DNA from: a virus
Length of the DNA stretch: 64,000 nucleotides
Reading direction: 5' to 3' (one strand)
Virus record (IMG/VR): IMGVR_UViG_3300028840_006907
Coordinates: 320,001-384,000 of that record
Numbering within the stretch: the first letter of the stretch is position 1; each line of letters starts with the position of its first letter. A program made the translations under genes and the position numbers. This document shows, in pieces, positions 8,012 through 62,958 of the stretch. The notes under the pieces were generated by a model. It did no database searches and had not been told where the DNA came from. It saw only the letters and a program-made list of their open reading frames with translations.

Positions 8012-9475
8012 ATGGTAACAGAGTTTACAAAAGGCAAAAATCAAAAATTTGTAGCAACTATATCCTTCAGTCTTAATTGGGATGATAGAGATATTAAATC
8101 TATTAAGATAAAAGAGGGTCAGGAACTTTTCTATGATGGTGAAGTAGCTACTGTAGAAAATGGTGCTGGACAAGTAAAAGGTCGGTGTATGGGGTTAAAA
8201 TCAGCCATTAATGTTATGAATTGGTTGGTTCCTGTGGAAAATGGGGGGTCTTCAAAAACTCCTGAAGTACCAAAAATAGTTAGTGATAGTTTATTTGAGA
8301 ATGATGATTATAAACCAGGAATAGGTGGAAATCTTGACACTTATATCGAACGAACTAATGAAATTGGTGGGAAACGAGAAATTATCAAGGAAGAAGATTT
8401 GATTGTTAAAACTGTCTCACCTATTAATAAGAGAGAAGAGCAACCTAAGAAAGGAAAATTGGAAATAGCAGGAGATCAAGTTGAAGTCCCTAAAGACCGC
8501 CTTTTAGTAAGTAGTACCACTATAAGAACAAAGTCGAGTAAAAGAGATGTCACAATAACCAGAGCTGATGAAATGGGAGCTGATTCGGTACAACCTCTTA
8601 AAAAGGTTAAAGGAACAACTGCTAAAAAAGAAAAGAAAAAAAGTTTTACAGTTGATGATACTACTCCAAGACAAATTCATGAAGATATGAAATTGGATGA
8701 GATCCATCGTATCACTAAAGTTGTAAATGCTGATGAGTCTCAAGATGCTAAAGTTGTAAAGAAAATCGATAGATCTAAAGTAGAAGTCAAAGAAATTGAG
8801 GGAGTTACATTAAAGAGAACCGATTCTCCAAAAGATGTTAAGTTTAATAAAACAACTTCTCCTACTGAAGTTTCTATAAAAACTACTGTTGGTTCTGGAA
8901 GTAATTATTCCGCAGGAGATCAAGGTGGTGTGGTTGTAGGTAGATCTAAAGTTGCTAAAACTGGAGTTGAGAAAAAAGGTCAAGATTTAATTGATGATAT
9001 TTTTGAGGAAGCTCCAGTAATTACTGAAGAGGAAAAACAAAAACAAGCTAAAAAATTAGCTGAGAGAACAAAAAAAGCCCAAGAACGAGCGGCCAGCAGG
9101 AAAAAAAGTTCTAAAGAAACACAGAAAATGATGGAAAAGGAGAAAGAAGTTCAGAATGTAGAAGTTGAAATCCCTGCTGATAAGGCACCTGATCTTATTG
9201 AAGAAGTAAAAGCAGATGATTTAACAAAAATTACATCAGTGGAAATAGATGGTGATTTAACTGAAATAACTTCTGTAAAAGAAGATACTGTTGATTATCT
9301 ATTAATGTTGCCCGATAATTGGAACAAACTACATTGGGTAAAGAAGGAAAAATTTATAAAAGAAGTAACAGATGCTTCCTTTATAAGGTTTATTCTTTCT
9401 ATGGAAATAACCAAAGCAGTCAGAAATGCTTGTTTAGAAAGGTTAGAAGAACTTGGACAGAAAGAGTCAGGCTAA
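8012..9475 (+). CDS. lysine/glutamate-rich hypothetical protein (possible scaffold or internal structural protein)
   Basis: ORF track begins at a GTG at 7997; in-frame ATG at 8012 has a GAAAGGA RBS upstream. Highly charged low-complexity sequence. Confidence 0.5.
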   Translation: MVTEFTKGKNQKFVATISFSLNWDDRDIKSIKIKEGQELFYDGEVATVENGAGQVKGRCMGLKSAINVMNWLVPVENGGSSKTPEVPKIVSDSLFENDDYKPGIGGNLDTYIERTNEIGGKREIIKEEDLIVKTVSPINKREEQPKKGKLEIAGDQVEVPKDRLLVSSTTIRTKSSKRDVTITRADEMGADSVQPLKKVKGTTAKKEKKKSFTVDDTTPRQIHEDMKLDEIHRITKVVNADESQDAKVVKKIDRSKVEVKEIEGVTLKRTDSPKDVKFNKTTSPTEVSIKTTVGSGSNYSAGDQGGVVVGRSKVAKTGVEKKGQDLIDDIFEEAPVITEEEKQKQAKKLAERTKKAQERAASRKKSSKETQKMMEKEKEVQNVEVEIPADKAPDLIEEVKADDLTKITSVEIDGDLTEITSVKEDTVDYLLMLPDNWNKLHWVKKEKFIKEVTDASFIRFILSMEITKAVRNACLERLEELGQKESG

Positions 9476-11231
9476 ACGAATACTTGCGAATGTTGTCGAT
9501 TTTGATATGCATAACCTTTTTCCTCCACGAACCTTTATGGAGAATCTGGAAGATGCATCATCAGGAGAGTTTACATCTCAGCCTCAAAAAACTCTTAGGG
9601 AACGCCCTTATGGTACTCAACCATTAATGGTAACCCCTAAGTATGAGGGTGATTTCCTGAAAAAGTTACGGAAACCCGAACTAGAAGGCAAACCTGTAAT
9701 GCCTTTGGAAAATGTCGTGAATGTTTATGCTGCAAATCCAAATAATTTATGGGATTTCAGTATGCCTTCTGAATGGTTAAAACATCAGGAACGGCCTTTT
9801 CCCCGTAACCTCGTGGATCTCTATTATGAAACAAATAGGCCAGGTGAGGGTGTTGGAGAAAAAACTCTTGATGAATACCATGATCGGGGTTGGGATGCAG
9901 ATGATGCTCCTGAAATGTCAGAAGACAAACCTATTCGTAGAGGACCTTTTCCTGGGAAACCTTTAAAAGTTCCTTTTCATTCGGCATCAAAAAGAGTGGT
10001 GGCGTCATATTTATCTGAGTTTACGGAAAAAGATGAATGTTGTGGACCGAATGTAGGGATAGTTGTAGCATCATATTTAATGAATTGTGTTCCTTCTGAA
10101 TTTATTGTTAATTTTGAAAATATTAAAACCGCTATGTTATTAGAGGGGTTAGAAGAAAGTCGGATTGATAGTAAAACAAAAGGACTTCATAAATTAGAGA
10201 CTGGGGATGTGGTTGTAAGACCTTATAGAAATAGCCCTAAACAGGGTAAATGGATTTTTAAAACATTCTCAGGTCCAAGACCACCTGCAGCAATAGAGTG
10301 GCCTTATACTACAACTTTTGAGTTTATACCACATGGAAGAGAAAAACGAGTAAATAAACTTCATGTAAGAACGAGTTGCACTTGTCCTTCCTGGCTTTTT
10401 TGGGGTGCTCAATATAATGCTACTATGCAGGATTATAGGTATGGTCCTATAAGACCTAAGTTTGCTCCTCCTGACAAAAGAGATAAAAGGCGTAAGTTTT
10501 TAGCCTGTAAACATATCATAGCTTGTATTCCATATTTAGTTGGAACAGGACAACGTGGTAAATTTACCGATGAAGGTTTTTCTCTTCATATGATTGATGT
10601 TCCTGTAGAAAAGAGAAAACGGATCATAAAAGCTCCTAAATTTCAAATAATGAAAAAGGCTCCGATAGAAGAGTTAAGAATACCCCAGGAATTAATGAAA
10701 GCAGGTAAGAAGCCTGAAGTAAGATCTATTGTTTCTGAGTGGAAAACTGCTACTCCGCGTTTAAGAAAATCCATGTTGAAAAAGTTGGATGATGTTCAGG
10801 ATGTCTCTTACATAGCTCATAGGTTTCCTGAATCAGCTACTCATTTAGTTGCTGAGAGATTGAAGGAAATTGGTGATAAGACAAAACAGATGGATGTCAA
10901 GAAAGATGCGGTGGAGGAAATAAAAGTAATAGAGAAGATTGAGGATAAAGTTGAAAAAGCTCTTCCAGAAGTTCCGGCTGAATTGAGTCATTTTGAAGAT
11001 GATGAGAAGATCCAAAATTTATTAAAGGACATTAAAGAAACTCCTGGTTGGGAAAGAAAAAGTACACTTTTGAAGGAACAGGATGATGCTGATGCTCTTG
11101 CATATATGGCAATAGCTTTATATCGAGAGGATTTTGATGAAAGTGTTAATATTATCCTTGAAAAATTAAGTGATATGGTTAAGGAAAAGGGTGATCCAAA
11201 AGCCAAGAAATGGTCGGAGTATATTTATTAA
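9453..11231 (+). CDS. hypothetical protein with SWIM-type zinc finger
   Basis: 592 aa; CTCPSW...CKHIIAC fits the CxCxnCxH SWIM pattern. Start uncertain (TTG at 9453 or ATG at 9507). Confidence 0.5.
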   Translation: MDRKSQAKRILANVVDFDMHNLFPPRTFMENLEDASSGEFTSQPQKTLRERPYGTQPLMVTPKYEGDFLKKLRKPELEGKPVMPLENVVNVYAANPNNLWDFSMPSEWLKHQERPFPRNLVDLYYETNRPGEGVGEKTLDEYHDRGWDADDAPEMSEDKPIRRGPFPGKPLKVPFHSASKRVVASYLSEFTEKDECCGPNVGIVVASYLMNCVPSEFIVNFENIKTAMLLEGLEESRIDSKTKGLHKLETGDVVVRPYRNSPKQGKWIFKTFSGPRPPAAIEWPYTTTFEFIPHGREKRVNKLHVRTSCTCPSWLFWGAQYNATMQDYRYGPIRPKFAPPDKRDKRRKFLACKHIIACIPYLVGTGQRGKFTDEGFSLHMIDVPVEKRKRIIKAPKFQIMKKAPIEELRIPQELMKAGKKPEVRSIVSEWKTATPRLRKSMLKKLDDVQDVSYIAHRFPESATHLVAERLKEIGDKTKQMDVKKDAVEEIKVIEKIEDKVEKALPEVPAELSHFEDDEKIQNLLKDIKETPGWERKSTLLKEQDDADALAYMAIALYREDFDESVNIILEKLSDMVKEKGDPKAKKWSEYIY

Positions 11232-21408: not shown

Positions 21409-23859
21409 TTATATTTTATTATTTTTTCTAAGGAGAGCTATCTGACGTTTAATCCATCGAGGAGTTTCTTCAAGAGTTTCAGCCATTTGATTTCTTGTCA
21501 TCTTTCCACGATTATCTATTATGAATTGGAGCTTTTCTTCAGTCTTTCTATCTTTGGTACAACCAATAGGGTTTTTTGTAGATAATGTACCTTTTTTTTG
21601 TAAGAATTTTATTTGAGATTTAACCCATCGCTCTGTTTCATTGAGAGCTTTAGATAATTCTTTTTTAGTTTTATTTTTATAATTAGTGATTATATACTGC
21701 GTTTTTTCAGGGGTTCTTCTACATTTTGTTGAGAATTTAGAAATCTCTTTTAAATAGGTAAATTTCTCAGTGGGTTGTTTAATATTTATATCTTCAATAC
21801 ATTTTGAATTATATATTTCTTTTTCTCTTTTAGGATAAGGTTTAGTAACATAATTTTTTAATTTGTTAATTTTTTTCTTATCTCTTTTATTTTCACCTAT
21901 TAATAAGACATATTTATGTTTTCTTTCAGTAATAAATTTTTGAGCTTCAGATAATATATTTTTATTCCAATTATTCCATTGAACTTTAATTCCTTCTGGT
22001 ATGGTACTCATATTTTTAAAACCATTTTCTTTAAACCATTCCTTTTGAGAAATAATCCCTTGATTTTTACACCATTTTTTAAATGCTGATGTACGTTTTA
22101 GAGATTGAGCTGAAAAAGTCCTATTATTTTTAATGGAAGGATGTTTATATAAGTATGAACTTCCAAAGTTATTTCCTAGATAATCAAATCCACAAGCTTG
22201 GTAAATAGTCCCTATTTCAAGAGCTTTAGGATCAGCATAACCTATGAAAGCTCTTTTAGAAGTGTTATTAGCCATCCAATTACAAGCAAACCTTATAAGA
22301 CGGCTACCCAGGTTTTTCGGGGTCCATGAGGCAGTGGCACCTCTTTGAATTAAAGCTTCATATTTGGGAGTATCTTTACCTAGAATTTTGGAATATGCTG
22401 TGGGTTCATTTATAAATAATACTCCTGCGAGAATATTATTGTATCTGGCTGTGAAGCACCATTTTGGTATTACTCCAATTGTTCCTAACCATTCATATTT
22501 TTTTATAAATTGGACCATTTCATTATTAAATTTTTCTTCAGATAATGTAAAAGAAGTAGCTTTTAAAGAAGAGTGATTGAAATCGATATTTTTTTTATCT
22601 TCATCAATCCATTGAAGTTTCTTTTTATATTGGTGGCATATAAAAGTGGTCTTGTTTTTACTGTTAATTTTATTTTTTATTAAATCAATGATAATACCTT
22701 TTCGGATAGCTTCTTTTACATCATCAGACCAAAATCTAATCAAATTGGGTATATTTTTATTTTGGATTTCATCATTCTTAATATTTTCTTTTATTTTTAA
22801 TGCCCTTGGAGACGTATCATTTTCTCTTATTTCTTTACCATGCCAATAATTACCATCATATTGTACCCATAAGTTATAGCGAGGCATATAGAAATCAATT
22901 ACATGTTTAATAATTGGGTGCATAACTTGATGTTCTACAAAAGGATCAAATACAATAAGATAATTAAAAAAGTTATTTTCTTCATCTGAGGATGAGAAGG
23001 AATTATTTAGTTTAACTGTTTTATATGTTTTTTCTTTTATTTCAACATTCTGTTGGGGATTTTCAACGCCATATCTTTCAATATTAGTTTCAGTGATTTT
23101 TTTCTTAATCTCTGGAGATTGGAATACATTGTCAACCCCGTATCTTGATTGTACTGTTACTTTAACTTTTCTTTTTACTTCTTTAGATTGAGAGGGGTAT
23201 TCTACTCCTCGTTTTTCAATATTAGATTGACGGGATTTTTCTTTCATTGAGTTTAGTTGAGTAGAATATTCTACGCCATAACGTTTTTTAATAGTTTCGT
23301 TATTATGTTTAACTATATCTTCATTTATTTTATCTCGATTCCTTCTTAATCCTAGTTTAATAGCTCTTTCTCGGATGGCTTTCCAGGTCCTGTTTTCAAA
23401 GTAGAGCATAATAAATTCCATAGAATTCTTTTCATATACTTCTTTTAAAAGATCATCTTCTTTGGGTGACCAGAAGTCTTCCCTAGCAGGAGCGCTTTTA
23501 CCACCATCAATCATTTCTTGTTTAATTATTTCAGGATTTCTTTGAAGGTTTAATTTTTGAGCATTACTTCGGATGCTTTGCCATGATCGATTCTTGAATT
23601 TAGAAAGGATAAATTCTTTTGAATTATTTTCATATATATTTTTAAGAATATTTATCTCTTCGGTTGTCCAGGAATCTTTTCTTGGTCCTCTTTTTTTACG
23701 GTCTTCATTTATAAGGTCAGGATTACGGTGAAGATTTAGCTTACGTGCTTTTCTACAGATGGTTGTCCAAGATTTATTTAATTTGGAGATAATAAATTCT
23801 TTTGAATTATTTTTATATATTTCTTTTAATAAATTTTCTTCTTCTATTTTCCAACGCAT
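21409..23859 (-). CDS. multidomain hypothetical protein: N-terminal triplicated helical repeats, YGV(E/D)N repeats, possible Vsr/PD-(D/E)xK-like nuclease core
   Basis: Start set at second Met (MRWKIEE) with AAGAGG RBS; track start is 23916. Three ~50-aa repeats (SWTTEEINILKNIYENNSKEFI...); three RYGVxNxxQ repeats; VIDFYMPRYNLWVQYDGNYWHG resembles a Vsr/DUF559-type core. Only minus-strand gene in the plus-strand block. Confidence 0.5.
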   Translation of the reverse strand: MRWKIEEENLLKEIYKNNSKEFIISKLNKSWTTICRKARKLNLHRNPDLINEDRKKRGPRKDSWTTEEINILKNIYENNSKEFILSKFKNRSWQSIRSNAQKLNLQRNPEIIKQEMIDGGKSAPAREDFWSPKEDDLLKEVYEKNSMEFIMLYFENRTWKAIRERAIKLGLRRNRDKINEDIVKHNNETIKKRYGVEYSTQLNSMKEKSRQSNIEKRGVEYPSQSKEVKRKVKVTVQSRYGVDNVFQSPEIKKKITETNIERYGVENPQQNVEIKEKTYKTVKLNNSFSSSDEENNFFNYLIVFDPFVEHQVMHPIIKHVIDFYMPRYNLWVQYDGNYWHGKEIRENDTSPRALKIKENIKNDEIQNKNIPNLIRFWSDDVKEAIRKGIIIDLIKNKINSKNKTTFICHQYKKKLQWIDEDKKNIDFNHSSLKATSFTLSEEKFNNEMVQFIKKYEWLGTIGVIPKWCFTARYNNILAGVLFINEPTAYSKILGKDTPKYEALIQRGATASWTPKNLGSRLIRFACNWMANNTSKRAFIGYADPKALEIGTIYQACGFDYLGNNFGSSYLYKHPSIKNNRTFSAQSLKRTSAFKKWCKNQGIISQKEWFKENGFKNMSTIPEGIKVQWNNWNKNILSEAQKFITERKHKYVLLIGENKRDKKKINKLKNYVTKPYPKREKEIYNSKCIEDINIKQPTEKFTYLKEISKFSTKCRRTPEKTQYIITNYKNKTKKELSKALNETERWVKSQIKFLQKKGTLSTKNPIGCTKDRKTEEKLQFIIDNRGKMTRNQMAETLEETPRWIKRQIALLRKNNKI

Positions 23860-23962
23860 ATGAGTACCTCTTTTTAGTATATTACTTATTATAACAGGTA
23901 TTAGAGTTATTGTCAATATTTCATTTAATAAATATGGAATTCATTAATTTATAGGGAAAAAG

Positions 23963-52128: not shown

Positions 52129-53496
52129 GTGCCAGTATATCATTCAGGAAATTTAAGAGATACTGATAGGCCAGAATGGAATTATCCATTAAGACCTCAG
52201 GTTGCAGATTTAACAAAGCCTTTGGCTCCCCGAAATCTTATGGTAACAAGTCCTTATGATGTTGGAAAATTGGATATTCGTTGGGATAATCCTAATATTC
52301 TTCCACAAAATAGTGGATTAAATATTGTAGGATGTAATGTATACCGTTCTATTGATAGTCCTTTCAGATTTGTAAAAATTAATGAGACACCCGTTACCGT
52401 ACTTTTTTATCGTGATGAGACAAAAGAAACTTTGGTAACAAATGAAAATGCTACTCCTACAATACGTCATGATTTAGTTCCAGAAGAGAAATGGTCTGTA
52501 TGGGCTCAAAGAAGACCTATAGTAAGACCTGATTCAAATGGTGTTACAACTGATAGAGTTCAAGATATTTTACTTGAAATAGATAATGGTGATGGTACAT
52601 TTCTTGAAGTACCAGCTTTTTCTGTAAATGGAAAAACAGGTGAAATTGTACTTATAAGAACTCCTGTTTATAATTACGAAGTTAGCCAAATAGTTCCTCC
52701 ACGTTTACCATATCCACCTAATGGTCGCGTCAGAATTACATATAGATATTTAGAACATTCGGTAATTACTGTATTAAATCAAAGAATTTATTATAAAGTG
52801 ACAACAGTAGCAGTAGATCCGGATGATCCTGCTTCTTTTATTGAAACTCCGTTGGATGAGGTTTCATCACGTACTGCTTTTGATGTAGAATCGATTGATT
52901 ATATTTGGAGAGAAGGAATTTTACGTAATCGTTGGTTATTAGAGCAGAGCGGTGAAAGAGTGAAGATATTTATACGTAGATGGATGGGAGAAAAGTGTCC
53001 ATCTCATCAGACAAATTATGGACAAAGCTATAATGATTGTACTGATTGTTATGGTACTAATATTGTAGGTGGGTATGATGGTCCTTATGATGTGATAATA
53101 GCACCACCAGAGTCAGAGAAGATGATAGAATTAGCGGACATGGGACTTCATATTACTTACGATTGGGCAACTTGGATGGGTCCCTATCCGCTTCTAAATG
53201 AACGTGATGTTATTGTTCGTCAGAATAATGAGCGTTATGTTGTAGGTCCTGTGACTCCTCAGGGATCACGAGGATGTATTTATCAGCATCATTTTACTAT
53301 GAGCTATATTGACCAAGGAGATATTAGATATCAGATACCGATTGAAGGTGGGGAAACTAGTGTGCCTTCTTCATATGATCCTTATCGTGAAACTGCTCCG
53401 ACTGATGCAAGTCCAGCAATAAACGATAAGCCTGAAATTCCTGATGACAAGATCATTAGAGGCCGTACAGTAACCTTCGAAAATATTACCTATTAA
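52129..53496 (+). CDS. hypothetical protein
   Basis: 455 aa; apparent GTG start with AGAGAGG RBS, immediately after the giant gene. Confidence 0.45.
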   Translation: MPVYHSGNLRDTDRPEWNYPLRPQVADLTKPLAPRNLMVTSPYDVGKLDIRWDNPNILPQNSGLNIVGCNVYRSIDSPFRFVKINETPVTVLFYRDETKETLVTNENATPTIRHDLVPEEKWSVWAQRRPIVRPDSNGVTTDRVQDILLEIDNGDGTFLEVPAFSVNGKTGEIVLIRTPVYNYEVSQIVPPRLPYPPNGRVRITYRYLEHSVITVLNQRIYYKVTTVAVDPDDPASFIETPLDEVSSRTAFDVESIDYIWREGILRNRWLLEQSGERVKIFIRRWMGEKCPSHQTNYGQSYNDCTDCYGTNIVGGYDGPYDVIIAPPESEKMIELADMGLHITYDWATWMGPYPLLNERDVIVRQNNERYVVGPVTPQGSRGCIYQHHFTMSYIDQGDIRYQIPIEGGETSVPSSYDPYRETAPTDASPAINDKPEIPDDKIIRGRTVTFENITY

Positions 53497-53613: not shown

Positions 53614-55116
53614 ATGGATGTAACATTAGCAGGATTTAATGTCGATACAAATGTCCTTAGGGAGATGGAAGAAATCACCGGTAAACGGGATGATCTTACC
53701 CCAGAAGTTTTATCTGCCTCATATGCCCGGATAAGTCGGGATCCTCGGCCAATTGGTGAATTAAGATTAGATTCTAAAAACGAAGTAGAAAAAGCTCGGA
53801 AATCAAATTCAAGTATCATTTTTAAAATGGGCCATCATTCTGTAGCGGAGCATGCTGTATTTAATCTTGATGTTGTAGGACTTTCTCGATATGCTATTGA
53901 AGAGTTGGAAAAATTTCGATTATGTTCATATACAGAAAAATCTCAACGTTATATAACCCTTGATGATGACTATGTTGTTCCTCCTGAGATTGCTGGATCA
54001 AAGTTTGAAGATGAATTTAGGGAAACTATTAAAATGCAGAATGAAGCATACCATGAATTTTACGGTGCTTTAAAAGAACATATCTTTAAAAAGCATGCTG
54101 ATCTTGCCAGTGATCCAAAGAATAAGAATTTATTAGAAGGTTGGGCAAAGGAAGATGCCAGGTATTTAGTAAGCATTGCGACTGAAGCTCAGGTTGGAGT
54201 GACCGTCAATGCCCGAAACTTGGAACTGATGTTAAGAAGATTTGCTTCTAATCCGTTGCAGGAAGTCCAGGAACTGGGGAGAAAAATTTACCAGGAGGTG
54301 GAAAAAATTGCCCCTTCTATAATTATTTTCCATGAAGGTAATGAGTATGACCGTGATACATATCCTAGACTTGAAAAAGTAGGACGTGATTTATTTAATG
54401 GAAGCCATGTCTCATTTTTGGAAGGAGATGTCTCATTAATTGAATTTGATGAAGAAGCAGATGAAACTATAGCTGCATCATTACTTTATAAAGGTCTGAA
54501 TATCCCTTATAAAGATGTCATAACATTTGTTTATGATATGAGTGAAGAGGATACTGATAAAATTGTTAATGCTGTTTGGGAAGATGCCCAATTATATGAT
54601 TCGGCCCTCAGAGAATACGAATTTGCCAATCTTACCTATGAAGTCTGTTTATCTTCCTCTTGTTTTGGTCAACTAAAACGTCATCGTATGTCTTCTATTA
54701 TTGCTCAACCATACAATCCGAACAGAGGTGTGACTATTCCAGAATCGATTAAAGAGATTGGTATGGAAAAGAGATTTCAGGAGATTATTAAAAAGACAGA
54801 TGATGTATTTTTTAAGGTATACGAAGATTTACCATTGGTAGCTCCTTATATATTAACAAATGCTCATAAAAGACGGGTCATAATTCGGGTAAATGCTCGT
54901 GAGTTATATCATATGTCCCGATTAAGAGAGGATAATCACGCTCAATGGGATATAAAAAATGTGGTGACTAGAATGTGCATGTTGGCTCAGACAGAGATGC
55001 CATTTACATTTGCTCTTCTTTGTGGTAAAGACATGTATAATATGACATATAAAAATCATTTCGGTAATGAACCAAAAGTGAAAGAGGTGAAATTACCAGG
55101 TAAGCGTAAATTTTAA
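53614..55116 (+). CDS. thyX: ThyX-like flavin-dependent thymidylate synthase, double-length (two ThyX-like halves)
   Basis: 500 aa; N-half has ARISRDPRP, HHSVAEH and SYTEKSQRY with RHR replaced by FRL; C-half carries KRHRMSS. Roughly twice the usual ThyX length. Confidence 0.6.
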   Translation: MDVTLAGFNVDTNVLREMEEITGKRDDLTPEVLSASYARISRDPRPIGELRLDSKNEVEKARKSNSSIIFKMGHHSVAEHAVFNLDVVGLSRYAIEELEKFRLCSYTEKSQRYITLDDDYVVPPEIAGSKFEDEFRETIKMQNEAYHEFYGALKEHIFKKHADLASDPKNKNLLEGWAKEDARYLVSIATEAQVGVTVNARNLELMLRRFASNPLQEVQELGRKIYQEVEKIAPSIIIFHEGNEYDRDTYPRLEKVGRDLFNGSHVSFLEGDVSLIEFDEEADETIAASLLYKGLNIPYKDVITFVYDMSEEDTDKIVNAVWEDAQLYDSALREYEFANLTYEVCLSSSCFGQLKRHRMSSIIAQPYNPNRGVTIPESIKEIGMEKRFQEIIKKTDDVFFKVYEDLPLVAPYILTNAHKRRVIIRVNARELYHMSRLREDNHAQWDIKNVVTRMCMLAQTEMPFTFALLCGKDMYNMTYKNHFGNEPKVKEVKLPGKRKF

Positions 55117-55126
55117 AGAGAATCAT

Positions 55127-55804
55127 ATGAATATAAATCTGAATATTGTCCAACCACCTCATGTAGTCTTTCTCCTTTCAGGGGAATCTTTTCCAGCTTT
55201 GTTTTTCGATTGTTTTTTTAATTTATTGGATTATTGTAACAGGCAGAATATCGGATATACAATAATTAGGCGGTATTCTCCTGTTGTTTATTTTGTTCGA
55301 AACATGTGTTTAGGTGGAAATGTTTTGAGAGGGGAGAATCAGAAACCCTTTGATGGTAAGATAAACTACACACATTTAATGTGGATTGATAATGATATTG
55401 CATTTAAACCCGCTCAATTTCAATCTTTGTTGAACTCAAATATGGATATTATAGCCGGGGCTTATAAGATGGCTGATGGGAGACATTATGCCATTGTTGA
55501 AAATTGGGATGAAGAATATTTTCAAAAAAATGCTTCTTTTAAATTTCTTACTGATGAAGACATCAGGGGTAGAAAAGGTTTTATTGATGTAGATTATACT
55601 GGTTTAGGTTTTATGCTTGTAAAAAAGGGTGTTTTTGAATCTTTGAAATATCCTTGGTTCAGACCTAAATTCTATAAATTTGGTGATTGTTTTGATTTCT
55701 GTTCGGAGGATGTCGGGTTCTGTCGGGATATAAAAGAAAAGGGTTATAAAATCTATATCGATCCGAGAATAATTGTGGGTCATATTAAAGATATTGTTAT
55801 TTAA
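55127..55804 (+). CDS. hypothetical protein
   Basis: 225-aa ORF. Confidence 0.4.
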   Translation: MNINLNIVQPPHVVFLLSGESFPALFFDCFFNLLDYCNRQNIGYTIIRRYSPVVYFVRNMCLGGNVLRGENQKPFDGKINYTHLMWIDNDIAFKPAQFQSLLNSNMDIIAGAYKMADGRHYAIVENWDEEYFQKNASFKFLTDEDIRGRKGFIDVDYTGLGFMLVKKGVFESLKYPWFRPKFYKFGDCFDFCSEDVGFCRDIKEKGYKIYIDPRIIVGHIKDIVI

Positions 55805-56269: not shown

Positions 56270-56320
56270 TTTAGCTAGATTTTCTCTTACATACAGTTTT
56301 TAAAAAGATGGTCTTCTAAT

Positions 56321-56350
56321 GGAGGGAGTGGTTGCCCTCCATTTTTCTTT
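56321..56350 (+). terminator. rho-independent terminator
   Basis: GGAGGG - loop - CCCTCC followed by ATTTTTCTTT. Confidence 0.5.
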
Positions 56351-56512: not shown

Positions 56513-56605
56513 ATTCAGGGAAAGATTCACAATTTTTCCCTTTTCTTTTACCTCCTCCAATTTGATAATGTATTAATATTTCCCTGACTATATATAGGAG
56601 TATAT

Positions 56606-57166
56606 ATGGTCAGAATATTAGGAAACTCCCCGGAACGGATTGAAATACGTGATCTGCAAGATGTAGTTTATTACCGTCAAATCAAAGAGTTTACAGATCA
56701 ACAGTATGAACTTTCTAAAGATTTAAAACGGGAAATAGATAAAGGCCGTTTAATCAAGATAGATAAAAATGAGATCTATCGAGGTTCGGGAGAAATATCT
56801 GTCCATCAAATAGTTGAGAGTAACAATTCACTTAGTATCAGTGATCTTAAGACAGCGATACGTGAAGTCCTCCCTGAGATGAAAGGGAACAATGGGGCTA
56901 CTGAGAAATCAGTAAAGGATGCTGTCAGAGAAGTTATTCCTGTATTAGTCGAAATGGTTCGGCAAGAAGTTTCTAAAGTGAGTGTAGTCAGGGAAGAAGT
57001 AAAACCAAAGAAAACAACGACAAGTAGTGAATTCCTATTTCCGACTTATACTCCAAGTATCTCTGATACAGGTCTTAAGAGTAACATAAAAATAAAGGAA
57101 AAAGAAGTCTCTGGTGATTCAGTAGCAGATAGTCTTGCTATTCTTCGTCAGATTAAGAAAAAATAA
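56606..57166 (+). CDS. hypothetical protein
   Basis: 186 aa; ATAGGAG RBS. Confidence 0.45.
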   Translation: MVRILGNSPERIEIRDLQDVVYYRQIKEFTDQQYELSKDLKREIDKGRLIKIDKNEIYRGSGEISVHQIVESNNSLSISDLKTAIREVLPEMKGNNGATEKSVKDAVREVIPVLVEMVRQEVSKVSVVREEVKPKKTTTSSEFLFPTYTPSISDTGLKSNIKIKEKEVSGDSVADSLAILRQIKKK

Positions 57167-57216
57167 CAAATAATAAATCTAAATAAAATTTTTTAATCAA
57201 TCAAGGAGGTTATAGT

Positions 57217-58233
57217 ATGAGTTGTGGCGTGGATATAGGAACATGTTTCCTTGTAAGTGCTAGAAATGATGATAATAATCAAATTCAAATAAAGTCTATT
57301 CGGGATGCTTTTCTTGACATGGAGAACAACCCCCAAGTCAAAAACATGATGAAAATGTCAGGTGCAAATTTTATTGAATCTGACGACATTCTTTACATAA
57401 TTGGTGATTCCTCAGTGGTAGTAGCAAACATATTCCAGAAAGAAGCTCGTAGACCATTGAGTCGGGGTGTTATTTCTCCTGGTGAACTTGAAGCTGAGAA
57501 AATTCTGTTGGTTTTGATAAAGGATATATTGGGGAATTGTAAAGTGCAGGATGAAACTTGTTATTATTCGGTTCCTGCCGAGCCCATAGATCATGAAGCT
57601 GATGTGATCTATCACCAAGCTATGTTTAGTAAACTTATTGGTTCATTAGGTTACAAGCCAGTTGCTTTAAATGAGGCAGCAGCAATCATTTATAGCAATT
57701 GTGGAAAGGAAAAATTTTCGGCGATATCTATTTCTTTTGGTGCCGGTTTAACAAATGTTTGTCTTATGTATCAAACGATTATTGGTATGGCTTTTAGTGT
57801 AAATAAAGCTGGAGATAATATTGATGACGGTGCTGCTCAGGCTCTGGGAACTACTTCCAGTAGAATACAGTCAATAAAAGAAAAGGGTATAAATCTTCTT
57901 GATCCTAATGAAGGTGATCCGAAGACTTTCCGGGAACGTGAAGCTATTATCATTTATTATAAAAGTTTGGTTTTATATGTACTTGATAAAATCAAAGAGG
58001 AATTTTTGAAACGTCAAGGTACGATTGAATTACCTAATGCTATTCCGATTGTGCTTTCAGGTGGAACTAGTTTGCCGAAGAATTTTAAAGAGTTTTTTGA
58101 AGCCGGTTTTAATGAAGTAAAGGATAAATTCCCAATTCCGATTTCAGAGATTAGAATGGCAGAACAACCATTAAATGCAGTAGCACAGGGTCTATTAATT
58201 GCCGCTATGAACCATGATGAAGGGTCAAAATAA
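57217..58233 (+). CDS. actin-fold ATPase (MreB/ParM/Alp-like, ASKHA superfamily)
   Basis: 338 aa; AAGGAGG RBS; N-terminal GVDIGT phosphate-1-like motif, VLSGGTS and C-terminal NAVAQGLLIAAM. Confidence 0.55.
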   Translation: MSCGVDIGTCFLVSARNDDNNQIQIKSIRDAFLDMENNPQVKNMMKMSGANFIESDDILYIIGDSSVVVANIFQKEARRPLSRGVISPGELEAEKILLVLIKDILGNCKVQDETCYYSVPAEPIDHEADVIYHQAMFSKLIGSLGYKPVALNEAAAIIYSNCGKEKFSAISISFGAGLTNVCLMYQTIIGMAFSVNKAGDNIDDGAAQALGTTSSRIQSIKEKGINLLDPNEGDPKTFREREAIIIYYKSLVLYVLDKIKEEFLKRQGTIELPNAIPIVLSGGTSLPKNFKEFFEAGFNEVKDKFPIPISEIRMAEQPLNAVAQGLLIAAMNHDEGSK

Positions 58234-59579
58234 TGTATCAACGCTTGATGTATGCAATAAAAAGACGGATTTTGGATGAGAGTGAAGATGCATTCAAAGA
58301 ACATCCTGCTTTTTCTGAAAAAGTAAGAGTTTACAATAAATTTCCCTATGATGAACGGGTTCAATTTGGGATAATTCTCCGAAATGCTTCTTCTTCATTG
58401 ATACGTCTTTCTGCTGATAATTTTATGTCAGATCTTTATTCTCATGTCAAAATAGCTAAACAAGGAACTCATCCTGGAATAGCTATTGAATGGGTGAGAG
58501 AGAATGAAGGAAATATTACTGAATATGTTGAGGAGGATGTTTCTTCTCAGTTAGATCCGACTAGAAGGATATTTACAACGAATTATCCTATTACTGCCGG
58601 ACCAAATAATACTGATTATGCTACTAGTCCGGGACAGGTCAGAGTGACTCTAGATGGTACTAAGGTGATGCCTCAATTTGTTTATGGTGAAGATAGCGAG
58701 GTATGGTTAACACAGGCTCCGAATGCTGGGACGGTTGCGAAGATATGGTATAATCGTCGTGCTATTGTACCACCTAGTATTCATATTGTTGAATTTACTG
58801 AGGATAATCAGTTTATAGTAGGTATGATTTATGTGATTGATAATGAACTTTTGATAGAAGAAACGACTGGGCTTGAGACTACGGTTAATTTGGTTAATAG
58901 TAATGTTGATACTAATTCTGAAGAAATTTGGTTGACCTATAAAAATGGTACAAAAATAGTGGCTTTGGAAAATGGTGTTGATTACAGTATTAATTATGCT
59001 ACTGGATTGATTACTTTTCTTCAACCATTACAAAGCAATTATAGTATTTACGCTGATTATCGTTATCAGCCTCCTGGAAATGTTACAGGTCCTTATGTAT
59101 TTACTGAGTATCAAGAAAATCATGAGGCAATTCCAGGAGTAGTCCTCTCAATTGGTCGTCGGGCTAAGAAGGGTGATAAGCAGGCTGTTATTGTTTCTCA
59201 ATCGAATGAACTGCAGGCTAAAATTTATGGTGGTCATTGGGAAATTTCATTGGATTTAGCGGTGATTGCTAAAGATCCGATGCAGATGGAACAAATGACT
59301 GATCATATTATCTCTTATTTGTGGGGTGAGAGAAAAAATAGGTTGGAGTATGAGGGAATCGCTTTAAATTCAGTAGAGCCTACTGGAGAGACAGAGGAGA
59401 CTCATGTAGAATCAACTGGTGATCTTTATTACGAATCGGGTGTTTCCATAAATCTTCAATCTGAATGGCAGAGATTTGTGCCATATAATCCGATTTATCG
59501 ATTAAGAGATATTAACATGATAGCTGATTTAAGACCAGTCATAAAGGGTCCGATCATCAATTTCGAGAGGTTAACTTGA
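58233..59579 (+). CDS. hypothetical protein (possible structural protein)
   Basis: 448 aa; start overlaps upstream stop (TAATG); Ig-like segment GQVRVTLDGTKVMPQFVYGEDSEVWLTQ resembles repeats in 60157-62958. Confidence 0.45.
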   Translation: MYQRLMYAIKRRILDESEDAFKEHPAFSEKVRVYNKFPYDERVQFGIILRNASSSLIRLSADNFMSDLYSHVKIAKQGTHPGIAIEWVRENEGNITEYVEEDVSSQLDPTRRIFTTNYPITAGPNNTDYATSPGQVRVTLDGTKVMPQFVYGEDSEVWLTQAPNAGTVAKIWYNRRAIVPPSIHIVEFTEDNQFIVGMIYVIDNELLIEETTGLETTVNLVNSNVDTNSEEIWLTYKNGTKIVALENGVDYSINYATGLITFLQPLQSNYSIYADYRYQPPGNVTGPYVFTEYQENHEAIPGVVLSIGRRAKKGDKQAVIVSQSNELQAKIYGGHWEISLDLAVIAKDPMQMEQMTDHIISYLWGERKNRLEYEGIALNSVEPTGETEETHVESTGDLYYESGVSINLQSEWQRFVPYNPIYRLRDINMIADLRPVIKGPIINFERLT

Positions 59580-59624
59580 TTTAATTATCTTTTAATAATT
59601 GATACATATTGTTAGGAGTTTATA

Positions 59625-60044
59625 ATGCCTCTTTATGAATATAAGTGTAAAAAATGTGAATTTGAATTTGAAGAACTCATCCTGAATAAGGAAGGTAGTC
59701 TTTTAATAAAATGTAGGAGATGTGGAGCTGAAGCTGAAAGAAAGATGAGTTCATTTTCATCAGTAGTTCAGGGAAGTTCCAATGAATCGGTTGATGTTAA
59801 AATCGGTCGGGAGGCAGATAAAAGATGGGAATTATACCATAATCGCCAGGAAAAGAGGCGTGCTGGTAAAGAGTTAAAAGAAGTAAAGTTATCAAAAAAA
59901 GGTGGTCAGTATAGACCTGTGATGGCTTTAGGAAGTGAAAAGACAATTGAAAATAGAAATAAGTATTCTGAGTCCCTGCAACAACATAGGCAGGATAGAG
60001 AAAAACGTGGTCAGTCTCAATTTAGTGAAACTGGCTCATTTTAA
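59625..60044 (+). CDS. FmdB-family zinc-ribbon protein
   Basis: N-terminus MPLYEYKCKKCEFEFE...CRRCG; second FmdB-type gene in the window. Confidence 0.6.
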   Translation: MPLYEYKCKKCEFEFEELILNKEGSLLIKCRRCGAEAERKMSSFSSVVQGSSNESVDVKIGREADKRWELYHNRQEKRRAGKELKEVKLSKKGGQYRPVMALGSEKTIENRNKYSESLQQHRQDREKRGQSQFSETGSF

Positions 60045-60156
60045 CCTCTTAAATAATAAATAATATATCAAATAAAATTTTATTAAATCCAAATAAGATA
60101 AGAGATAAAAAAATTTAATTAAAATTGTAAAAACAAAAATATGTAGGAGGTTAACT

Positions 60157-62958
60157 ATGGGACTTGGCCCTTTTGATTCGTTTTCGTTTCCTGATGTGTA
60201 TACGAAAACATTGAATGAAGCGCCTACCGTAACTGCGTCTGGAGATATCCGCATTCCTGCTTTTATTGGAGTAGCTGATGAAAATGTTCCTGTTAATAAC
60301 TATGAAATGATTCGCGGTTCAAGTGCATTGGCCGATAATAAAATAGTTAGGGAAAATGTTTCCAGTCAGGTAACAGGTAGTAACCGTAATTTTAGAGTCT
60401 CTTACTATCCTATTGTAAAAGGGGATGGTAATGGTACCACTACGACAGATCCAAACGATGTAACGGTTGAGGTTGATGGAGAAGCAGTTGCAGTCTCATC
60501 AGTTGACGGAGAGAATGGTTGGATTTATCTAGTAGGTATCCCACCAACAGGAAGTACAGTGCTTATCACTTATTATTTCAAACGTAATGATACATTACAT
60601 ACATTGGAAGATCTCAGTGATCAGGTTGATGGTACACGTACTGTTTTTCAAACACATTATACTCCGATTGTAACAGGTGATGGTAGTGGTACAACTACAA
60701 CAACTACTTCTCATGTTACAGTTTTAGTAAACAATTCAGCGGTTACTGTTTCTGCAGTGGATGGAGATTCAGGTCAAATTACTCTAGCTTCTGCACCATC
60801 GGTTGGTCAGACAGTGAAAGTAACTTATTATTCTAATGAATGGCAAGATACGGCAGATATCTTACCTTCACCTTATGTTACAGAAGTAACACAGGTAGGT
60901 TATAGCCCAGGTACATCTGATTTTATTGATGAGACAGACTATGTTCTTGATACAACAGGGAATTTTAGTACAATAAACTGGGGCCATTCAGTAAAAGTTA
61001 GTGCCGGTACAACAACAACAGGTGGTGAAGCTTTTGATGATACACAAATCACTACTACTCTGTTTGATAATCGGACATTTCGTAGAGCTATGACAGGTAC
61101 TGTTGATGGTACTAATGCAAATTTTGTGATGGAAGCTACTCCGAAGAGTGGTGAAGGTCGTGGTATTGATACTGATGATCCCGATCTTGTTACAGCTTAT
61201 TATGGTACTAATCCAACAGATGCTACAGTTATAGATGTAATTCAATTAACAGCTTCTTCAAGAACGGCTGTTTTGGCATCTGCTCCTCCAGCAGGAAATA
61301 ATGTCTATATCACTCAATATAGCAATTTACTTCCTGATGATACTTGGACTTTAACTGATAAGACTTCCGGTGCTACAGGTATTGGAGTTTATGATGTTGA
61401 GGGTACTAATGCTGGTACGGCTATGGACGTTCAGTGGTCAACAACTGATACAACAGTTGCTGATCCAGATTTCTCTTCTGAGAATGTGACTTATCCGAAT
61501 GGTACCGGTGCAGGTAACAGTGATGCTCAAGTGTCGCCTGGATTTGCTGTTCAAGAAACGGTATCTTTAACTTTTGCCGATGCTACCACTTATACTGTAA
61601 GTTCAGACCAGACAAGTACTGGTTCTGGTTCAGGTGGCGATAATACAGGATATTTAAATCAAACTTACATTGACAGTGTAACGGGTTTCCGTATTACTGT
61701 TAATGAGGGTACATTAGTTATATATCAGGCGGGTGATAAATTAGGTTATACTGTTAATCCTGATTTTGTCACTTCTACGACACCAACAAGAGCAATACCA
61801 GGTGTTCGTGTAAGAGTATCTAATACTACTGATGTAGTGGTAGGAGATACAGGTTTAGTAAAAACGTATAATTTATCAGGACAAGAACCGAATGTTGGAG
61901 ATTTCTATTATGTCTCTTTTACTGAAGCTGTACAATTTGATTCTGATGGTATTCTCATAGGTGGAGCTAAATTATACAGTCAGGAGAAAAATGTAATAGC
62001 TGATACAGGTCCTTTATCTATAACAAATAATCTTGGAATGGCCGCTCATCTTGCTTTTTTGAACGGTTCAAGTTTAATTGCCTTACTACAGATAGAGAAG
62101 ACATCCGGTGCTGATGATGCCCCTGATTCAAGGTATATTGCGGGTATTGATTATTTCAATGAGCCCATGGAAGGTGGTACAAGACCAGCTCTTATGCAAC
62201 CAGTAACAACTTCATCTGCGGTTATCAATTATTTGAGAACTTCAAATACCATTCAATCTGGTATACGTTATGCGAATGAACGTTTCTCTTATTTTGGTTT
62301 CCCGACAAATACGTTACCAACGAGTGCTCAGACTTTTGCTCGATCAATGAATAATGAGTTGATGGTAGCTGTTTATCCTGATGGTGCTGTGACAACTATC
62401 ACGGATGAATTAGGTAATGAGACTGAATATTTGGTAGATGGAGCTTATATGGCAGCAGCGATTGCTGGAAGAGATACTTCACCTGCTTTCGATGTAGCAG
62501 AACCATTGACAAGAAAACCTATTGTAGGATTCCGTCGTTTATTCCGTAGAATGGATTCGGTAACTGCTGCACAAACGGCAAATGCTGGTATAACTCTTCT
62601 TGAAGAGTTAGCTGCAGGTATTGAGGTTAGATTTGCTTTGACAACTGATATATCATCGGTATTAACGAGAACTCCTTCAGTTATTAGAATAAAGCAATTT
62701 GTTCAGAGAGGGGCTCGTTCGGTATTACAGCCTTATATTGGTTCCAAGCTATTAGTTCAACGTAGAGCAGAAATAGAGCAGACTCTTAAGTCTTATCTAG
62801 CTGCCTTACAGCAAGCTAATATTATTACTGGTTGGACAGGTGTAAAGGCTGAACTGGATCCGAATGATCCGACGATTATTAATGTGGAAGCTTTTTATAG
62901 CCCAGTATTTCCGTTGTTATGGATTGTGATTACTTTTAATCTTCGTTCTAATATATAA
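60157..62958 (+). CDS. large structural protein with two tandem Ig-like insert domains; weak resemblance to phage tail sheath C-terminal region
   Basis: 933 aa; AGGAGG RBS; two ~70-aa repeats (VSYYPIVKGDGNGTTTTDPNDVTVEVDG..., YTPIVTGDGSGTTTTTTSHVTVLVNN...). The sheath resemblance is recalled by eye and is low confidence. Confidence 0.5.
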   Translation: MGLGPFDSFSFPDVYTKTLNEAPTVTASGDIRIPAFIGVADENVPVNNYEMIRGSSALADNKIVRENVSSQVTGSNRNFRVSYYPIVKGDGNGTTTTDPNDVTVEVDGEAVAVSSVDGENGWIYLVGIPPTGSTVLITYYFKRNDTLHTLEDLSDQVDGTRTVFQTHYTPIVTGDGSGTTTTTTSHVTVLVNNSAVTVSAVDGDSGQITLASAPSVGQTVKVTYYSNEWQDTADILPSPYVTEVTQVGYSPGTSDFIDETDYVLDTTGNFSTINWGHSVKVSAGTTTTGGEAFDDTQITTTLFDNRTFRRAMTGTVDGTNANFVMEATPKSGEGRGIDTDDPDLVTAYYGTNPTDATVIDVIQLTASSRTAVLASAPPAGNNVYITQYSNLLPDDTWTLTDKTSGATGIGVYDVEGTNAGTAMDVQWSTTDTTVADPDFSSENVTYPNGTGAGNSDAQVSPGFAVQETVSLTFADATTYTVSSDQTSTGSGSGGDNTGYLNQTYIDSVTGFRITVNEGTLVIYQAGDKLGYTVNPDFVTSTTPTRAIPGVRVRVSNTTDVVVGDTGLVKTYNLSGQEPNVGDFYYVSFTEAVQFDSDGILIGGAKLYSQEKNVIADTGPLSITNNLGMAAHLAFLNGSSLIALLQIEKTSGADDAPDSRYIAGIDYFNEPMEGGTRPALMQPVTTSSAVINYLRTSNTIQSGIRYANERFSYFGFPTNTLPTSAQTFARSMNNELMVAVYPDGAVTTITDELGNETEYLVDGAYMAAAIAGRDTSPAFDVAEPLTRKPIVGFRRLFRRMDSVTAAQTANAGITLLEELAAGIEVRFALTTDISSVLTRTPSVIRIKQFVQRGARSVLQPYIGSKLLVQRRAEIEQTLKSYLAALQQANIITGWTGVKAELDPNDPTIINVEAFYSPVFPLLWIVITFNLRSNI

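Follow-up and report, generated by a model that had tools for sequence, protein, structure and literature searches.

The open reading frame (ORF) described here lies in a 64,000-nucleotide (nt) stretch of viral DNA (IMG/VR record IMGVR_UViG_3300028840_006907, positions 320,001 to 384,000), referred to below in its entirety as the window, and encodes a 338-amino-acid (aa) protein that, judged by sequence profile and predicted structure, is an actin-fold ATPase of the Volactin family (PF25216) and falls, by fold, on the filament-forming side of the actin superfamily. The window belongs to a huge phage, and the volactin-bearing phage lineage is widespread, with genomes of about 0.2–0.6 Mb. We propose, with a probability of roughly one half, that the phage volactin and g186, the product of a small gene upstream, constitute a two-gene late cassette that would form filaments coupled to a cargo.

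Profile searches placed the protein in this family over nearly its full length. Residues 1–330 were aligned with positions 1–321 of the 321-position Volactin model of Pfam at a score of 216 bits (cutoff 35, E = 1.2e-63), whereas a partial match to MreB_Mbl (PF06723, 25.9 versus a cutoff of 27) was below threshold, two FtsA models were under cutoff (PF14450, 15.2 versus 31.8; TIGR01174, 15.7 versus 175.85) and no Pfam model of ParM or Hsp70 matched at E ≤ 0.1. The NCBIfam models of MreB (TIGR00904, 24.9 versus 365.75), MreBH and FtsA scored far under their cutoffs, and the MamK model NF040964 did not match the window protein and gave its relatives at most 47.9 against a cutoff of 400. No match in PHROGs, NCBIfam or PADLOC was obtained for the actin, for g186 or for g448, the product of the next gene downstream, and the PADLOC defense models gave zero matches for six proteins tested (the actin and its neighbors). 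A phmmer search of PDB sequences returned MamK alone (E = 0.31), and a chromosomal volactin-family protein of Halogeometricum borinquense (P0327) was 34% identical over the full length (E = 2e-71). An interpretation made previously from the letters alone (the sequence-only reading) had described the ORF as an element-encoded actin-fold ATPase of the MreB/ParM/Alp type; the profile search that it proposed did match an actin-like family, and its family assignment has to be replaced by Volactin.

The fold was predicted with AlphaFold from an alignment of 26 homologues (mean predicted local distance difference test score, pLDDT, 88; predicted template modeling score, pTM, 0.86). As the sequence-only reading had anticipated in proposing a structure prediction, actin-like proteins were the best matches of this model. 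The top Foldseek matches among solved structures were the MamK filament (template modeling, TM, scores of 0.70/0.73), MreB from four organisms, BeeR, FtsA, ParM, crenactin and eukaryotic actin. A best match to Hsp70 or sugar kinases had been named beforehand as the outcome that would speak against an actin; Hsp70 was first encountered at rank 41 with a TM score of 0.55, and the actin-like reading stands because Hsp70 ranks so far below MamK and MreB. These results also bear on the idea, which we consider improbable, that the protein is a non-polymerizing member of the ASKHA (acetate and sugar kinase/Hsp70/actin) superfamily that serves as an assembly chaperone for neck and tail proteins, in the manner of the Hsp70 homologue of closterovirus virions. 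The location of the gene, fixed between tail-fiber genes and the terminator and sheath genes, would suit such a chaperone, as would the replaced carboxylates of the phosphate-2 motif described below and the finding that the best matches in a library of viral structures (BFVD) were viral Hsp70 homologues. However, the latter matches are explained by a library that holds hardly any actin-like proteins, MamK and MreB clearly outranked Hsp70 among solved structures, the protein has neither a Pfam match to Hsp70 nor room in its 338 aa for an Hsp70 substrate-binding domain, and the characterized member of the family forms filaments (PMC10869688).

All five nucleotide-binding motifs of the actin/ASKHA fold were present in the protein (Table 1) and conserved in its homologues; the GVDIGT, VLSGGTS and NAVAQG segments listed in the sequence-only reading were each recovered among them. 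Homologues numbered 1,272 at E ≤ 1e-3 in a search of 5.8 billion proteins, and 970 cluster representatives at 50% identity were matched in an exhaustive search of 1.84 billion representatives. So many homologues, together with strong purifying conservation, led us to reject the idea that the ORF arose by chance or is a pseudogene. Among 88 representatives that were 31–67% identical to the window protein, residues D6, G8, T9, E153, G175, G177, G282, G283 and G325 were invariant or nearly so. The phosphate-2 motif had the form SxGxGxxN, with S173 found in 85 and N180 in 87 of the 88, whereas the same motif of MamK reads D-I-G-A-G-T-T-D. MreB, ParM, Hsp70 and actin likewise carry carboxylates in phosphate-2. 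Since the serine and asparagine are nearly invariant and are kept in cellular relatives as well, SxGxGxxN marks the Volactin family and is no defect of the window gene.

The phosphate-2 loop was also the site of inteins in about 19 of the best 150 representatives. In P0121, P0131 and P0134, a Hint/LAGLIDADG or mini-intein was located between the equivalents of residues S173 and 174 (...SS/CLTPG...IHN/CGAGMVN), and in P0122 and P0141 an HNH-type intein occurred near residues 187–196, 15–20 residues beyond the phosphate-2 site. Inteins typically sit at indispensable sites, and we know of no other intein-bearing protein of the actin family. Other unusual architectures included P0124 (729 aa), in which Volactin was matched in two stretches and which may thus be a tandem double volactin, P0198 (1160 aa), in which a volactin is fused to Wzz/GNVR and a ParA/BY-kinase-like ATPase, and P0137, P0142 and P0144, which have long N-terminal extensions.

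The large-phage setting suggested in the sequence-only reading held up. A protein identical to the window actin was encoded on a 469,617-bp contig, close relatives were found on contigs of 474, 512 and 590 kb, and a scan of IMG/VR, with an alignment biased to relatives at least 45% identical to the window actin, gave at least 125 viral contigs with a relative of this gene, 80 of which were fetched (up to 618,736 bp). A tblastn search of 50,697 phage records yielded only two matches, both to uncultured huge phages in GenBank (485 and 595 kb). In addition to the actin, the window encodes a tail sheath, very long fiber-like proteins (LamG, beta-helix), ThyX, a Mom-like protein and glycosyltransferases. 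A scan of contigs from metagenome-assembled genomes (MAGs) with phage-clade-specific patterns returned three contigs only. Two of these, binned as KSB1 (L004) and Altiarchaeales (L005), were short contigs with the phage arrangement of partner, actin and terminator genes and are most likely mis-binned phage fragments; the third (L006, Planctomycetota) grouped with cellular Planctomycetota sequences. One 297-kb contig (IMGVR_UViG_3300025141_000016) carried two volactins (L047 and L060), about 160 kb apart and 48–49% identical to the window protein, that could be either paralogues or the product of an assembly join. An actin-fold protein of Bacillus phage G, the sole cultured megaphage in this comparison, was noted in BFVD (G3MAP7, Gp506) and is unrelated to the window actin (TM score 0.65, 10% identity).

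In the candidate partner, g186, a conserved N-terminal domain (residues 1–55) is followed by a variable linker and a P-x-Y-[IV]-P motif, and the protein ends in an amphipathic basic tail, DSLAILRQIKKK. It had no match in Pfam, PHROG, NCBIfam or PADLOC. To measure how regularly such a tail accompanies the actin, ORFs of 100–320 aa that ended no more than 2.6 kb upstream of the actin gene were scored for the pattern [LAVIM]xx[LIV][RK]x[LMIAF][KRNQG] in their last 22 residues. A tail-bearing ORF was found in 53 of 78 loci, immediately upstream of the actin gene in 44 of these, as compared with 8 of 679 background ORFs from the same loci (1.2%), and several of the loci scored as lacking the tail have the motif just beyond the 22-residue window. 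The partners of the two deep phage clades, in both of which g186 homologues or at least the tail recurred, were homologous by hhalign (probability 98.6%, E = 9e-16, 193 columns) and had in common the N-terminal domain, the P-x-Y-[IV]-P motif and the tail.

The genomic setting of this gene pair was compared by tblastn of window genes against 86 related loci in which the actin was 42–78% identical to that of the window. Homologues of g455, which forms the upstream boundary of the block, were found upstream of the actin gene, on the same strand and 2–7 kb away, in 60 of the 86 loci; g448, a tail terminator protein, had homologues downstream in 76, and the tail sheath was downstream in 73. Gene order was fixed, on one strand, and many of the loci that did not match stop at contig ends. 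The last base of the actin stop codon is also the first of the g448 start codon (TAATG). In the second phage clade the neighboring genes were only 30–40% identical to those of the window, so the arrangement is old. Insertions were also noted, including a 531-aa DUF723 homing-endonuclease-like protein between the actin and tail terminator genes of a 590-kb relative (L009, 11032–12627) and insertions between the partner and actin genes in L017, L018, L023, L032, L039 and L043. The cassette tolerates mobile insertions and is not lost.

Sequences flanking the cassette were consistent with its expression as part of this block. A promoter-like motif, TAATWATCTNYTAAT, occurred 12 times in the window (0.83 expected, a count of 12 being reached in 0 of 100 shuffles), and all copies were co-oriented with local genes and located 40–150 nt before start codons. 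In L004, L008, L009, L011–13, L015, L017–19 and L023, g186 homologues were preceded by this motif at the corresponding position, and an equivalent of the hairpin and T-run upstream of the partner gene was also seen in related loci. Because two terminator-like hairpins and a promoter-like copy precede g186, and the next exact copy follows g448, the genes for g186, the actin and the tail terminator likely make up one predicted transcription unit. The motif is unlike the sigma-70 consensus, and its recognition may depend on a polymerase or other factor specified by the phage. Upstream of the actin gene lies an AT-rich element, a 36-nt repeat that is 81% identical to positions 60051–60086 upstream of the sheath gene. 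Within the closer clade, its core, [AG]ATC[CT]AAAT, was found in 10 of 34 distinct regions upstream of the actin gene and in 6 of 32 upstream of the sheath gene. The corresponding share of background windows was 0.8%, and no region upstream of g448, g186, g455 or g124 contained the core. The recurrence of this core upstream of both genes hints, on modest evidence, at shared regulation of actin and sheath. The pattern AAATCYAAATAA was not enriched across the window (8 matches versus 4.65 expected) and is notable only for its position upstream of these two genes in related phages. No RNA family was detected with Rfam between positions 55700 and 60300.

Table 1. Positions of the actin gene, its motifs, neighboring genes and putative regulatory elements in the window
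Feature	Position (nt)	Strand	Residues	Remarks
Actin ORF	57217..58233	+	338 aa	ATG start; from the ORF listing
Shine-Dalgarno sequence of actin gene, GGAGG	57205-57209	+		
Phosphate-1, GVDIGT	57226-57243	+	4-9	
Connect-1			152-156	
Catalytic-type Glu153	57673-57675	+	153	
Phosphate-2, S173-F-G-A-G-L-T-N180	57733-57756	+	173-180	
Adenosine motif, VLSGGTS	58054-58071 (LSGGTS)	+	279-285	
Connect-2	58174-58191 (NAVAQG)	+	318-325	NAVAQG at residues 320-325
g186	56606..57166	+	186 aa	Soluble candidate adaptor
g455	52129..53496	+	455 aa	FN3-like N-terminal region, Cys cluster; upstream boundary of block
ThyX	53614-55116	+	500 aa	Matched in two stretches; length about double that of a usual ThyX
g448, tail terminator protein	58233..59579	+		Inserted beta domains
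Zn-ribbon protein (Zn_ribbon_8, FmdB-like)	59625..60044	+	139 aa	Pfam E = 1.4e-11; 37 of 86 loci
Tail sheath	60157..62958	+	933 aa	Phage_sheath_1C C-terminal domain, weak match; same call in L009
Terminator-like hairpin and T-run	56318..56343	+		After g124
Second terminator-like hairpin and T-run	56517..56541	+		
Degenerate promoter-like copy, TGATAATGTATTAAT	56558..56572	+		Two mismatches to TAATWATCTNYTAAT; 34 nt before g186 start
Exact promoter-like copy, TAATTATCTTTTAAT	59582..59596	+		Just after g448; start of next transcription unit
Copies of TAATWATCTNYTAAT	7822	-		
Copies of TAATWATCTNYTAAT	7912, 9292, 11959, 12645, 17879, 27612, 35178, 35943, 38249, 55812, 59582	+		
AT-rich element with AAATCTAAATAA	57161..57196	+		21-56 nt upstream of actin start

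The gene context did not point to the role suggested in the sequence-only reading, namely positioning DNA or organizing replication compartments. A specific form of this suggestion, which we regard as decidedly unlikely, is that the pair is a genome-positioning or segregation system of the ParMRC or AlpAC type, in which g186 would bind DNA and act as the adaptor between phage DNA and growing actin filaments, either for placement of replication sites or for maintenance of a plasmid-like carrier state. A small adaptor gene beside the actin gene, encoding an N-terminal domain, a linker and a tail, does resemble ParR/ParM and AlpA/AlpC (PMC5539076, PMC4446434), and the adaptor logic is shared with the cassette proposed here. 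However, no iterated centromere-like repeats adjoin the cassette, no DNA-binding domain was detected in g186 with Pfam, PHROG or NCBIfam, the gene resides within the late structural block in 70-plus loci and, in the window, in a predicted unit with the tail terminator, and the only carriers of the Volactin family in a plasmid collection were five haloarchaeal megaplasmids (Haloarcula, Natrinema and Halogeometricum, 34–37% identity).

A different role is suggested by the cellular members of the family. Volactin (VolA, HVO_2015), an actin homologue of Haloferax volcanii described in 2024, is needed for the timely transition from rods to disks, and its fusion to green fluorescent protein formed dynamic filaments that crossed the cytoplasm with their tips touching the membrane (PMC10869688). 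The adjoining gene, HVO_2016, encodes a CdpA-like protein, and in CdpA itself a disordered linker connects a transmembrane domain to a small domain at the C terminus (PMC12126565). In our comparison, proteins of Halogeometricum, Haloarcula and Natrinema stood in for HVO_2015 as cellular references. The haloarchaeal gene upstream of volactin encoded a CdpA-like protein with 3–4 transmembrane segments, and the P0327 gene had neighbors with CdpA_N, RdfA and SMC-like domains. Amphipathic tails were present in the upstream proteins of haloarchaea, Planctomycetota and other bacteria (LLGSIRSLFR, LMSRLRSLFFE, LLNRVRSLVKRD, ASLNKLKSMQTGEE and VERLKQIKQQDDNNE). One Planctomycetota protein carries the NCBI name "disk-shape morphogenesis protein volactin". 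Other cellular members included L091, on a Planctomycetota chromosome in a housekeeping neighborhood, and L093, a tandem volactin pair on a bacterial contig with gatCAB.

In a rough, distance-based neighbor-joining tree with midpoint rooting, which is indicative only, sequences formed a haloarchaeal clade, a Planctomycetota/bacterial clade, two large clades from viral contigs and a deep lone branch, LR756511. The gene on this branch (L094, positions 8974–10017 of a 595-kb phage) encodes a volactin that is 30% identical to the window protein and lies in a wholly different neighborhood; because of its deep branching and neighborhood, the Volactin family may have been acquired by phages more than once. 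Phage and cellular sequences fell in separate deep clades with only 30–37% identity, which is one reason to regard as rather unlikely the alternative of host-cell remodeling, in which the phage actin would alter the shape, size or division of the host, for example by blocking division or enlarging the cell to accommodate large virions, with the partner directed to the envelope. The shape-controlling role of the only characterized family member, the pairing of cellular members with CdpA-type membrane proteins and the likeness of the g186 tail to a membrane-targeting helix all speak for such remodeling. Against it, g186 has a conserved soluble N-terminal domain and no transmembrane segment, as opposed to the 3–4 of its haloarchaeal counterparts, and the actin gene is found in a predicted unit with the tail terminator, not among early genes for host takeover.

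The two-gene cassette named at the outset would operate as follows. Late in infection, the actin, read in one promoter-to-promoter unit with the tail terminator within the neck and tail late block, would bind ATP and polymerize into dynamic filaments, like the family member of H. volcanii. The C-terminal tail of ParR binds ParM, and by analogy the C-terminal tail of g186 would dock on the phage actin. The N-terminal domain of g186 would hold the phage cargo, either virion parts or packaged or replicating DNA. The resulting phage-made cytoskeleton would spatially organize the assembly of a very large virion and could be regarded as the actin-based equivalent of the tubulin spindle that PhuZ forms.

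Several points weigh against this proposal. Filament formation by the phage members is presumed from family precedent, and the contact between tail and actin is a proposal made by analogy. Because both phosphate-2 carboxylates are replaced (DxGxGxxD to SxGxGxxN), ATP hydrolysis could be unusual. The amphipathic basic tail of g186 could bind membrane or nucleic acid instead of actin, the nominal Fisher P of 3e-53 for tail enrichment overstates the independence of phylogenetically related loci, and the tails of cellular partners resemble those of the phages only loosely, so that this likeness serves as a lead. The conserved synteny could be explained by vertical inheritance of a rigid core block in place of a functional tie to tail genes, and no cultured phage among the 50,697 phage records carried the actin gene.

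A broader version of the proposal is more tentative. The volactin filament and its dedicated adaptor, with a C-terminal peptide that docks on the filament, might be the core late actin cytoskeleton of a huge-phage lineage represented by hundreds of metagenomic genomes of 0.2–0.6 Mb, organizing the assembly or placement of giant virions as a counterpart to the spindle of PhuZ. Tail peptides might likewise tie cellular volactins to the CdpA-like membrane anchors of haloarchaea and the coiled-coil partners of Planctomycetota, in which case the pair would be an ancient two-part module of archaea, bacteria and phages.

Other features of the block and of the window were noted. The upstream boundary protein g455, probably a structural protein, has two invariant cysteines (C290 and C307) and a nearly invariant one (C304), and did not match PDB sequences significantly. 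A repeated beta domain is shared between g448 and the N-terminal third of the sheath (30–38% identity), and a short similar stretch is found in g455. Most related loci lack the ThyX gene, which occupies a variable stretch bounded by g455 and the actin cassette. In all related phages, almost all genes of the block had a strong GGAGG Shine-Dalgarno sequence ahead of them (e.g., 57205–57209 and 60144–60148 in the window); such strong use of Shine-Dalgarno sequences argues against a Bacteroidota host. No tRNA was found in the window. An 835-aa protein encoded on the minus strand (21409–23916) joins DUF7487, a Mom-like domain (DNA-modification family) and helix-turn-helix motifs.

No description of volactin-type actins in phages was found in a search of 8 million papers that included actin in huge, jumbo and mega phages. 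A survey of huge phages does not mention actin, and a 2025 paper on phage G mentions a tubulin-like protein and not actin. Some copies of the gene are already annotated by the Joint Genome Institute as "actin-like ATPase involved in cell morphogenesis". Thus, the existence of the gene was not hidden, but the family to which it belongs, how it is distributed, its constant position within the tail block and its partner appear undescribed. To our knowledge, the cytoskeletons made by phages that have been described comprise a single tubulin system, PhuZ, and a single small prophage actin, AlpC. The present findings bear on how the largest phages organize the cell while building virions half a micrometer long, in that an archaeal cell-shape actin family described in 2024 is also a fixed tail-block gene, with a candidate adaptor, in a widespread lineage of huge phages. 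They provide a concrete pair of actin and adaptor, small enough for expression and imaging, which is also a marker gene pair for the lineage, and they point to a possible rule for the binding peptide that could also explain how the tips of cellular volactin filaments are anchored. Should the protein not polymerize, the finding would shrink to an unusual ATPase in a tail operon.

Among known systems, VolA of H. volcanii is a relative of the window actin. Both belong to the same Pfam family, the window protein being 34–37% identical to haloarchaeal members and sharing their motifs, including SxGxGxxN, and in both cases the gene directly adjoining that of the actin encodes a partner that has a linker and a C-terminal tail. 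In contrast with VolA, the window actin is borne by a phage, its partner is the soluble 186-aa g186 and not a CdpA-like membrane protein with four transmembrane segments, its gene is part of a tail-gene operon and not of a cell-shape neighborhood, and the two fall in separate deep clades; a role in disk shape cannot apply. The closest solved structures were those of MamK and MreB (TM scores 0.63–0.73), with the four-subdomain architecture of actin, although identity was only 15–18%, all sequence models were under cutoff and the phosphate-2 motif of MamK is DxGxGxxD. ParM/ParR/parC also combines an actin with an adaptor, ParR, that has an actin-binding C-terminal tail, and dynamic instability has been noted for volactin in vivo; in contrast with that system, no centromere repeats, adaptor of the ribbon-helix-helix type or match to a ParM model was found here, nor were plasmids with the gene other than the haloarchaeal megaplasmids.

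Functional parallels are found in two phage systems. AlpC and AlpA of the Corynebacterium glutamicum prophage CGP3 are a phage actin and its adaptor, the latter of which binds specific DNA sites (PMC4446434, PMC5539076). As in the window, an actin-like protein encoded by a phage is accompanied by a small adjacent adaptor, which provides a precedent for actin owned by phages. However, AlpC, which from its description is set apart from the family of the window actin, serves the transport and replication of viral DNA in a small temperate prophage, whereas here neither DNA sites nor a DNA-binding domain was seen and the context is late and structural. PhuZ, which forms the tubulin spindle of nucleus-forming jumbo phages (Chimalliviridae; PMC4244570), is likewise the product of a cytoskeletal polymer gene of very large phages and organizes the infected cell, an analogy of function on which the proposed mechanism draws; unlike the window actin, PhuZ has a tubulin fold, is found in another lineage of phages, is not known to have an adaptor cassette and is encoded outside the tail block. 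We therefore propose that the phage volactin works most like AlpC/AlpA or, by analogy, like PhuZ, while being related to neither.

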